This document shows, one piece after another, positions 53,533 to 55,225 of a DNA stretch of 55,225 bases. Source of the stretch: a virus (taxonomy: Duplodnaviria; Caudoviricetes). Every line of letters starts with the position of its first letter. The first letter of the stretch is position 1. The notes below the pieces were generated by a model that worked only from the letters and a program-made list of their open reading frames with translations, had not been told where the DNA came from and made no database searches. The stretch is from positions 1-55,225 of IMG/VR virus record IMGVR_UViG_3300020473_000034. One strand, written 5' to 3'. The translations under genes and the position numbers were made by a program.

Positions 53533-54990
53533 ATGCAAGCCCCAATAAATAACGAGGTTTTGCAGGAAAAGTGGGCACCACTTCTTGACCACGAAGGTGC
53601 AGAGAAGATTACAGACCCACATAAAAGAATGGTTACTGCCGTTCTCCTGGAAAATCAAGAAAACGCAATTAGAGAGGAGAGAGAATTCCTTTCAGAAGCT
53701 GCTCCTGCAAACAGCACAGGTTCATCAGGTGCAAATGCTGGTTTCAGTAATGCTGCTGGTAATGGTCCAACTGCAGGTTTCGACCCTGTACTAATCAGTT
53801 TGATCCGTCGTTCAATGCCTAACTTGGTCGCATATGACCTTGCTGGTGTTCAACCAATGACTGGTCCTACTGGACTAATCTTCGCAATGCGTTCACGCTA
53901 CGATTCACAGACTGGTACTGAAGCATTATTCGACGAAGCAGATACTGGATTCTCTGGTGTTAGTGCTAATAGAGCAGAAACAGACATCGGTAATCCATAT
54001 GTTGCAGGTTCTGATCATAAGTCCGTTGGTTTTGGTACTACTTCACAAAATGAAGGTACTGCAGCTAATGTTCCTCAAGATCCTTCATTACTTAACCCAA
54101 CATCAGGTTCACCTGCAAACCAGAGGAAGTATCCAACTGGTCAGGGTATGAATACAGAGAATGCTGAAGCTCTTGGAACAGATGGTTCACCAGCATTCAA
54201 CCAGATGGCATTCTCAATCGAGAAAGTCACTGTTACTGCGAAGTCACGTGCTTTAAAAGCTGAGTACTCACTAGAACTTGCTCAAGACCTCAAAGCAATC
54301 CACGGATTGAATGCAGAAGCCGAGTTGGCAAACATTCTTTCTACTGAGATTCTTGCTGAGATCAACAGAGAAGTTATCAGAACAATCTACAAGGTTGCTG
54401 AACAGGGTGCTTCTACAAACGTTGCTAACCAAGGTACATTCGACCTTGACGTTGACAGTAATGGTCGTTGGTCTGTTGAGAAGTTCAAAGGACTTATCTT
54501 CCAGATCGAAAGAGATGCCAACAAGATTGCACAGAGAACTCGTCGTGGAAAGGGTAACATGATCCTTTGCTCTGCTGACGTTGCTTCTGCACTCACCATG
54601 GCAGGTGTTCTTGATTACACCCCTGCTCTTAATGCTAACCTTAATGTTGATGACACAGGCAATACATTTGCTGGTGTACTTCAAGGTAAGTATAGAGTAT
54701 ACATCGATCCTTATTCATCAAACTCAGATGCGATTGATGCTACTCAGTACTATGTTATTGGTTATAAGGGTTCTTCACCTTATGATGCAGGACTGTTCTA
54801 CTGCCCATACGTTCCTCTACAGATGGTTCGTGCAGTTGGAGAGAACTCATTCCAGCCAAAAATCGGCTTCAAGACCAGATATGGTATTGTTGCTAACCCA
54901 TTTGCTGAAGGTACCACACAACAGTATGGTAAGCTTAAAGTTAATGCTAACCGTTACTACAGAAGAGTTCAAGTTAAGAACCTTATGTAA
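53533..54990 (+). CDS. gp23: Major capsid protein gp23
   Basis: LIRRSMPNLVAYDLAGVQPMTGPTGLIFAMR, KSRALKAEYS and FQPKIGFKTRYG motifs. Confidence 0.99.
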   Translation: MQAPINNEVLQEKWAPLLDHEGAEKITDPHKRMVTAVLLENQENAIREEREFLSEAAPANSTGSSGANAGFSNAAGNGPTAGFDPVLISLIRRSMPNLVAYDLAGVQPMTGPTGLIFAMRSRYDSQTGTEALFDEADTGFSGVSANRAETDIGNPYVAGSDHKSVGFGTTSQNEGTAANVPQDPSLLNPTSGSPANQRKYPTGQGMNTENAEALGTDGSPAFNQMAFSIEKVTVTAKSRALKAEYSLELAQDLKAIHGLNAEAELANILSTEILAEINREVIRTIYKVAEQGASTNVANQGTFDLDVDSNGRWSVEKFKGLIFQIERDANKIAQRTRRGKGNMILCSADVASALTMAGVLDYTPALNANLNVDDTGNTFAGVLQGKYRVYIDPYSSNSDAIDATQYYVIGYKGSSPYDAGLFYCPYVPLQMVRAVGENSFQPKIGFKTRYGIVANPFAEGTTQQYGKLKVNANRYYRRVQVKNLM

Positions 54991-55093
54991 ACAAGGATGC
55001 TGTGGGTCAGGAAGATGTCCCACATGTCCATTCAGATCAGAAAGACCTCCTTTACGGGGGTCTTTTTTTATGTTCGGTTATTACATATGTTGA
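54944..55093 (+). CDS. Possible small Cys-rich metal-binding ORF overlapping the gp23 3' end in the +1 frame (or a frameshift extension of gp23)
   Basis: Encodes LCKQGCCGSGRCPTCPF immediately across the gp23 stop codon. Confidence 0.35.
   Translation: MLTVTTEEFKLRTLCKQGCCGSGRCPTCPFRSERPPLRGSFFMFGYYIC
55041..55069 (+). terminator. Rho-independent terminator after gp23
   Basis: AAAGACCTCC-tttac-GGGGGTCTTT plus a T run. Confidence 0.85.
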
Positions 55094-55118
55094 CATTTTT
55101 CTAAGAAGTTGGTATACT
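55090..55118 (+). promoter_or_regulatory. sigma70 promoter TTGACA-17-TATACT (extended -10)
   Basis: Consensus match. Confidence 0.8.
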
Positions 55119-55158
55119 AACTGTACGCTTTCGAGCGTATTTCCTATAACAATATCTT

Positions 55159-55225
55159 ATGGACAATTTCATAAAGATCAAAGGTCTAACTCCAGAGCAA
55201 GAAATTGCTGTATTGGAGGAACTGA
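55159..55225 (+). CDS. Partial hypothetical protein (MDNFIKIKGLTPEQEIAVLEEL...), runs off the window
   Basis: ATG after the promoter, open to the end of the window. Confidence 0.6.
   Translation, partial: MDNFIKIKGLTPEQEIAVLEEL

Follow-up and report, generated by a model that had tools for sequence, protein, structure and literature searches.

The 3' end of the major capsid gene (gp23) of a T4-like cyanophage is overlapped, in another frame, by a short cysteine-rich open reading frame (ORF). It lies in a 55,225-nucleotide (nt) stretch of viral DNA (IMG/VR record IMGVR_UViG_3300020473_000034, positions 1 to 55,225; hereafter, the window), a 55-kb cyanophage fragment whose nearest records are Kyanoviridae. 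We put the chances at a little better than even that positions 54944-55093 are an unannotated, independent, overlapping mini-gene from a cyanophage family of Cys-rich proteins of ~20-50 residues. The core of the mini-gene is under clear selection at the peptide level. We read it as an independent gene because the module has its own starts, forms ATGA overlaps, and is found in other genomic contexts, and because there is no conserved slippery site. An earlier note on the window, made from the sequence alone, had preferred a +1 frameshifted isoform of gp23 and had offered an overlapping 49-codon gene from ATG 54944 as its second option; the second option is the best-fitting reading. The features concerned are:

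53533..54990, + strand: gp23 major capsid gene, 485 codons, from the ORF list and blastn to annotated cyanophage gp23/major capsid genes
54944..55093, + strand: proposed mini-gene, from ATG 54944 to TGA 55091-55093, 49 codons, in the +1 frame of gp23
54995..55036, + strand: conserved core G-C-C-G-S-G-(R)-C-P-T-C-P-F-R with four invariant Cys, from the alignment, the codon table, and a three-frame substitution test

The gene for gp23 ends with AAC(54979) CTT ATG TAA(54988-54990); translating the +1 frame, beginning at 54983, gives L C K Q G C C G S G R C P T C P F. So the Cys-rich frame described in the earlier note is indeed present, and its five Cys codons are at 54986, 54998, 55001, 55016, and 55025. 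At the first of these, the overlap with ATG-TAA forces a Cys. The +1-frame ORF (54581..55093) has no stop until the TGA at 55091-55093. ATG 54944 is the closest canonical start in this frame, 17 codons 5' of the core, and a gene that starts there overlaps the last 15 codons and the stop of gp23. The window's core has a one-codon insertion (AGA, 55013-55015) that it has in common with two relatives (L008 and P0001), which have R or K before the third Cys.

The density of Cys in this frame is unremarkable. The window's six frames contain 15 stop-free stretches of 17 codons with at least five Cys; in 50 block shuffles of the window, the mean number of such stretches was 0.58. What makes the feature more than chance is its conservation in relatives, not its Cys density. 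The earlier note had made its case depend on whether the Cys codons are conserved; across relatives they are, and the coding signature is in exactly this frame. The family's core is [KR]-G-C-C-G-[AS]-G-C-P-[TDN]-C-P-[FY]-[RK]-P, and nine residues are invariant in 71 aligned peptides (G13, C14, C15, G16, C20, P21, C23, P24, and R26). We also scanned for sequences anchored only on the end of gp23 and on G-C-C-G, which leaves the next 11 codons (33 nt) unconstrained. This gave 51 unique sequences, of which 4 were chance matches within other genes and 47 were behind gp23. All invariant residues are retained in 44 of these 47 gp23-adjacent sequences; the exceptions are one G>A change, one P>S change, and one 1-nt insertion.

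Within the unconstrained 33 nt, the variation is concentrated at the third codon position: among 30 unique sequences, the number of variable columns was 3/11, 3/11, and 11/11 for codon positions 1, 2, and 3. (The codon table includes one chance match away from gp23, L423, so we took the position counts from the 30 unique sequences instead.) Codon pairs that differ are synonymous 80% of the time in the Cys frame, versus 10% and 0.4% in the other two frames, and the median identity is 0.95 at first and second codon positions versus 0.64 at third positions. The codons in use include all four for Gly, TCA and AGC for Ser (that is, both families), and AGA, AGG, and CGN for Arg. The core tolerates T, D, or N at one position, and F and Y alternate at another. 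Upstream of the terminator loop, the indels are of 3, 3, and 9 nt; past the loop, the frame is no longer kept. The mini-gene's own frame is under purifying selection. The constraint is on the peptide and not on an RNA structure: the variation sits at third positions, and the arms of the predicted hairpin in this region (see below) are often not fully paired. We considered and rejected a reading on the minus strand: A/T changes at the shared wobble sites are non-synonymous there, and in TGA-type loci that frame meets a stop after ~9 codons.

The distribution of the element behind gp23 does not follow the similarity of gp23. The gp23 3' ends of Synechococcus phages ACG-2014a and S-RIM12 are just ~68% identical to the window, yet the same element is found right after the stop, while the nearest gp23 relative (AG-345-L05), as well as P-SSM2, lacks it. 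Some relatives with 95% identical gp23 C-termini also lack the element. Because close relatives by gp23 differ in carrying the module, it must move between genomes. An exact 20-base pattern from the element was found in 33 IMG/VR contigs, and in 33/33 it was directly after the gp23 stop and in the +1 frame. When we sampled gp23 flanks by similarity of gp23 alone, the element was present in just 3/80 and 2/78 of them. This patchy carriage, along with the replacement of flanks, suggests that the element is an exchangeable cassette between the gp23 stop and the terminator. In marine DNA run X1, other contigs carry unrelated short flanks instead, with breakpoints at 54990 and at 55041 or 55055, and the presence or absence of the mini-gene is polymorphic within this one community.

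The closest relative of the window's peptide is P0001, a called ORF of 44 residues from a marine metagenome that is 86% identical. Using tblastn, we found 127 phage records with the peptide, and the name Synechococcus phage is on 120 of them. A single isolate, Synechococcus phage ACG-2014g (KJ019071.1), has two copies, behind gp23 and behind a phrog_1811 gene. The module is not annotated in the isolate records KJ019153 and KX349321 (behind gp23) or KF156338 and KJ019062 (behind the phrog_1811 gene). When prokaryotes were scanned with a pattern, at one genome per species, no cellular homolog matched that pattern. The single match was a gp23-adjacent copy, on a contig filed under a metagenome-assembled genome of a Methanobacteriota archaeon (L384; PCAW01000011.1). 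This contig carries a cyanophage gp23 end with the mini-gene; its placement in an archaeon is probably a binning error. Finally, a profile built from the 71 peptides and compared to 1.84 billion representatives had 18 hits with E<=1e-3. One of these is a repeat protein, and the rest are +1-frame ORF calls within gp23 or small ORFs with the core. The small ORFs include some with a Met 3-5 residues before the core.

The same module is also found away from gp23. The counts from our degenerate scans for the core, here and below, hold among the matches listed. The variant of the core with CP-D-C was found in at least 88 unique contexts, of which at least 81 are away from gp23. In one type of context, the module is behind the phage psbD gene: the upstream ORF encodes a 353-residue D2 protein. 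In an unbiased sample of psbD ends, the mini-gene was found in 1/76 unique sequences. The module is also behind two small uncharacterized proteins (phrog_32637/275 and phrog_1811), behind a 265-residue Gly/Cys-rich protein, and in free-standing copies, which are 23-codon ORFs that follow a late-promoter-like CTAAATA. There are ATGA stop/start overlaps with three different upstream genes (L428, L448, and L495). At three gp23 loci, the module is in the -1 frame instead, and its GTG start and the stop of gp23 overlap (GTGA). At L437 (3574-4632, - strand) and 11 other unique loci, the mini-gene is right behind psbD and overlaps its stop. PHROGs has no family for the peptide.

Another class of the module overlaps the 5' end of the phrog_591 gene, which encodes a secreted, HExxH-containing protein of ~225 residues. 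The frame of the signal peptide is one base downstream of the Cys frame. In an unbiased sample of the phrog_591 family, the core was intact in ~15/80, a few members had decayed cores, and most had unrelated signal peptides. Among the intact members, the shared DNA is almost invariant, and in one member, Val-Ala in the signal peptide is replaced by Ala-Val via two substitutions, neither of which alters the Cys-frame peptide. This swap and the near-invariance of the DNA point to constraint in both frames, and it is possible that the overlap is dual coding or that a signal peptide was overprinted on the mini-gene. L138 (8303..8971, - strand) and its relatives (L223-L302) make up a phrog_591 subgroup whose signal-peptide DNA also encodes the Cys core. 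In two loci of this signal-peptide class (L124 and L154), the sequence directly upstream resembles, by eye, the 3' end of a tRNA gene, with a GGTTCGATCC-like arm.

Does the module have its own start codons? We asked where the nearest in-frame ATG, GTG, or TTG lies upstream of the core. A start is present 4-6 codons before the core in 13/13 psbD contexts, 3-10 codons before it in 58/61 other contexts, and 2-10 codons before it in 48/67 gp23 contexts. We then compared carriers and non-carriers of the module, counting unique ends for gp23 and ignoring kinship throughout. A +1 start is present in the last 8 codons of gp23 in 38/54 carriers versus 45/116 non-carriers (p=1.4e-4), and the +1 frame is closed in those codons in 0/54 carriers versus 28/116 non-carriers (p=9e-6). 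For psbD, the start is present in 12/12 carriers versus 46/102 non-carriers, and an Arg codon CGT, which creates an in-frame GTG, is present in 10/12 carriers versus 16/102 non-carriers.

These results are the basis for how we think the mini-gene is expressed. It would overlap an upstream gene with high expression (in the window, the 3' end of gp23) and would most likely be translated on its own, from an in-frame start within the last codons of gp23 (ATG 54944 in the window). Ribosomes that finish gp23 would probably help its translation (translational coupling). Phage genes that overprint other genes are well known, such as lambda Rz1 within Rz. The mini-gene resembles translationally coupled overlapping phage genes in being a short, unannotated ORF whose putative start falls within the upstream gene or at its end, with ATGA-type overlaps in three contexts and a GTGA overlap in one. 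It differs from them in that the start is not conserved in the gp23 context and in that the stop is past a transcription terminator. Fremin and colleagues reportedly predicted small gene families in phage genomes in 2022. We did not find the mini-gene in the literature that we searched, which did not extend to supplementary files. Passages of PMC10690425 have nothing on it either.

The features that bear on transcription are:

54995..55029, + strand: predicted RNA hairpin within the coding core, in which TGTGGG pairs with CCCACA, plus outer pairs
55039..55070, + strand: intrinsic terminator of gp23, a 12-pair stem (55039-55067) and then a T run; the frame of the mini-gene reads through it
55090..55118, + strand: sigma-70-like promoter for the next gene (ATG 55159), with TTGACA, 17 nt, TATACT, and an upstream TG; 11/12 matches

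As the earlier note pointed out, the frame's stop (TGA 55091-55093) is past the stem and the T run of the terminator, and a terminated mRNA would have no stop codon in the frame of the mini-gene. This is not a peculiarity of the window: the stop is past the T run in 75/75 gp23-type copies. Because of this, normally released peptide would be made only from transcripts that read through the terminator. Other copies are arranged differently. The stop is before or in the T run in 10/11 psbD copies and in 35/54 of the other copies that have a T run. In the class 2 copies, the frame closes 4-5 codons past the core, 70 nt can be followed without meeting a T run, and the stop is inside the transcript.

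The position of the stop in the gp23-type copies is one of several observations that weigh against an independent mini-gene. The enrichment of starts behind gp23 is modest, as 39% of non-carriers have +1 starts by chance. Of 55 unique gp23-type carriers, 16 have no ATG, GTG, or TTG in the last 8 codons of gp23, and 5 of those 16 have no start within 25 codons. In one carrier (L028), a stop closes the frame 18 codons upstream, and no canonical start intervenes. ATG 54944 itself is missing from the closest relative, P0001, and reading the window's sequence, we saw no Shine-Dalgarno-like sequence upstream of it. When three metatranscriptome runs were compared to 54500-55225, the contigs covered the conserved parts of gp23 only and not 54925-55140. 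Also, the proposed role in binding metal, which is discussed next, comes from a sub-threshold similarity to the motif of DUF5522, and the variant of the peptide in the window does not match that family.

The four cysteines might hold a metal ion or a redox-active site. This suggestion comes from the similarity of the core to the C-terminal Cys motif of DUF5522 (PF17653), a family of very small proteins whose four-Cys motif, like the core of the mini-gene, ends in C-P-[aromatic]. The earlier note had named DUF5522, and this held up weakly. DUF5522 is the only Pfam family that matched recurrently (48/71 peptides at E<=1; the best E value was 0.0056), and it is also the top lead from the ESM Atlas. 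For a free-standing copy, the three best clusters in the ESM Atlas are DUF5522 proteins of 33-43 residues, with scores of 0.86-0.82 and 181 shared features. On the other hand, the relatives' scores of 10.7-24.4 bits are all below the gathering cut-off of 25 bits, and the window's peptide had no match to DUF5522 at E<=10 or at E<=1. The matches are confined to the C-terminal motif (profile positions ~27/31 to 45 of 48). Most relatives align to the four-Cys motif without gaps, while the window, L008, and P0001 have the extra R or K before the third Cys. Two other differences are that the mini-gene is phage-borne and that it overlaps other genes. Overall, the peptide may work like the DUF5522 motif and may descend from it, but it is below the cut-off for membership. 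DUF5522 was not mentioned in the literature that we searched, so the family does not suggest a function. A search of the record and 14 control genomes for the DUF5522 family gave no match, which is uninformative. We also considered if the phrog_1811 protein and the core could be the two parts of a split DUF5522 gene. We rejected this idea: a fused protein (P0019) scores 23.0 bits on the motif alone. Another fused protein (P0015) aligns to positions 4-45 at 24.4 bits, which is no better than the motif-only match of P0019, and the upstream protein alone is not matched.

The main alternative to an independent mini-gene is that some ribosomes change frame. Several phages extend capsid proteins by programmed frameshifting, as in gene 10A/10B of T7 (-1) and the capsid and tail genes of Listeria phage PSA (+1). 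The mini-gene resembles these systems in that the alternative frame is open across the stop of the major capsid gene and a hairpin lies downstream, but neither a slippery codon nor the hairpin is conserved, and the module has its own starts elsewhere. Under programmed +1 recoding, some ribosomes on gp23 would shift near its end or at its stop and make a minor isoform with a Cys-knuckle tail, and likewise for D2 and other proteins. We consider this unlikely. The core is in the +1 frame of an upstream ORF of at least 60 codons that ends no more than 48 nt away in 157/182 unique contexts, and the spacers from the gp23 stop to the core (4, 7, 10, or 16 nt) are all 1 modulo 3, as recoding would predict; but counted by independent contexts, there are ~7 in the +1 frame versus 4 in the -1 frame (ATGA or GTGA), plus the free-standing copies. 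Recoding would also account for the 16/55 gp23-type carriers without a nearby start and for the absence of +1 stops from the last 8 codons of gp23 in carriers. However, the +1 frame needs to be open across the Leu codon, which argues against a shift at the stop itself, and there is no common shift-prone site: the last sense codon varies by context (ATG, GAA, AAA, AGA, TTC, GCA, CTC, or AAC). The earlier note had singled out CTT as prone to +1 shifts, but among 54 unique carriers, 37 have CTC for this Leu and 17 have CTT. With CTT not conserved, no common slippery site or fixed stimulator, and the same peptide having its own start codon in many other contexts, the isoform that the earlier note preferred is not supported. 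Synonymous sites in the last 16 codons of gp23 vary freely, and besides not being conserved, the hairpin is at varying distances from the stop (spacers of 4-16 nt). In-frame fusions to the core do exist, of the phrog_1811 protein (P0015 and P0019) and perhaps of the other small upstream protein (P0014). P0015 and P0019 are 2 of the best 120 of 1701 homologs, each is from one contig, and their junctions do not coincide, a pattern that single-base errors in assembly would produce. A search for longer proteins that share words with the window's 49-residue peptide found none, and so no fused form of gp23, which is weak evidence. D2 is a photosystem II protein whose C-terminus is lumenal, and a tail there would be hard to reconcile with its role. 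A more elaborate idea is that the module is a mobile recoding cassette that inserts behind the stops of cyanophage genes with high expression, among them gp23 and psbD. A fraction of translations would then add the module to the upstream product, through a +1 event that depends on no start codon and no classical slippery site, so that the capsid protein and D2 would each have a minor metal-binding isoform. We find this slightly more doubtful than ordinary recoding.

The other alternatives do not require a functional protein. Ribosomes that translate as far as the 5' arm of the gp23 terminator could set the level of read-through to the downstream genes, perhaps because the nascent peptide makes them pause at the core's Pro-rich end, in which case the peptide itself would have no job. 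This would fit with the frame crossing the terminator in every gp23-type copy, with the R-P-P codons being the 5' arm of the stem, and with the lack of conservation of the frame past the terminator loop (there is a 1-nt indel in the loop between L011 and L020). We think that such a role in cis is improbable. A spacer or a pause would not need invariant residues, yet the four Cys and the Gly are invariant, and the same core is retained where no terminator follows. The class 2 copies lack a nearby T run; most psbD copies, and many others with a T run, have their stop before or in it. An untranslated RNA element in the 3' untranslated region (a hairpin before the terminator) or a chance run of off-frame Cys is strongly disfavored, and we give it very little probability. 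The window does have the hairpin at 54995-55029, the predicted fold of the whole stretch (54979-55075) is stable (-33.8 kcal/mol; z -3.49), off-frame Cys-dense stretches are not rare in the window, and the gp23 flanks of non-carriers hold what looks like a conserved hairpin at the stop codon. Against it are the third-position variation in one frame and the indels in multiples of three. Furthermore, the arms of the hairpin are fully paired in 19/32 unique gp23-type motif sequences and in 0/56 from other contexts, and we saw no compensatory changes in these sequences; because the arms are often not fully paired, the hairpin is not the conserved feature. Rfam has no family that matches at its gathering score; the three sub-threshold matches were on the terminator only. 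It seems just as remote that the module is a neutral remnant of the gene for the secreted phrog_591 protein, derived from its 5' end. The gp23-type core and the signal-peptide region of phrog_591 are close at the nucleotide level, but the GGA and GGG codons of the gp23-type core would put Glu or Gly into the frame of the signal peptide, the constraint at gp23-type copies is in the Cys frame only, and decayed copies are rare (3/47).

This conserved coding module lacks annotation in the isolate records that we opened. It is beside the most strongly expressed late gene and beside psbD. T4-like cyanophages are among the most abundant marine viruses, and their genomes are heavily used as references. 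If the peptide binds metal or acts on a host target, it would be a small and previously unrecognized participant in cyanophage infection; if recoding joins it to gp23, this would be a new kind of frameshift. The module also gives an experimental handle on DUF5522-type motifs, whose function is not known.

We also made some observations about the surroundings of the mini-gene. In the window, the near-consensus promoter for the next gene is directly 3' of the gp23 terminator, and the stop codon of the mini-gene (TGA) is inside its -35 hexamer. In the gp23 flanks of non-carriers (such as L303, L039, and L045; the equivalent region of the window is 54985-55030), the region of the stop codon and a motif that follows a few bases later are complementary. 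Across 116 unique non-carrier flanks, the stop codon and this motif covary: TGA is found with TCACA in 47 cases and with TTACA in 6, while TAA is found with TCACA in 2 cases and with TTACA in 17 (Fisher p=1e-9, ignoring kinship). This looks like a conserved hairpin that sequesters the stop codon of the capsid gene.

Finally, at L150 (1977-2468, + strand) and also at L156, a 163-codon ORF is inserted between gp23 and the mini-gene, which increases their spacing to ~640 nt. By eye, the insert in L150 resembles a homing endonuclease, presumably of the GIY-YIG type. Despite the insertion, the mini-gene in L150 and L156 retains its GTG.

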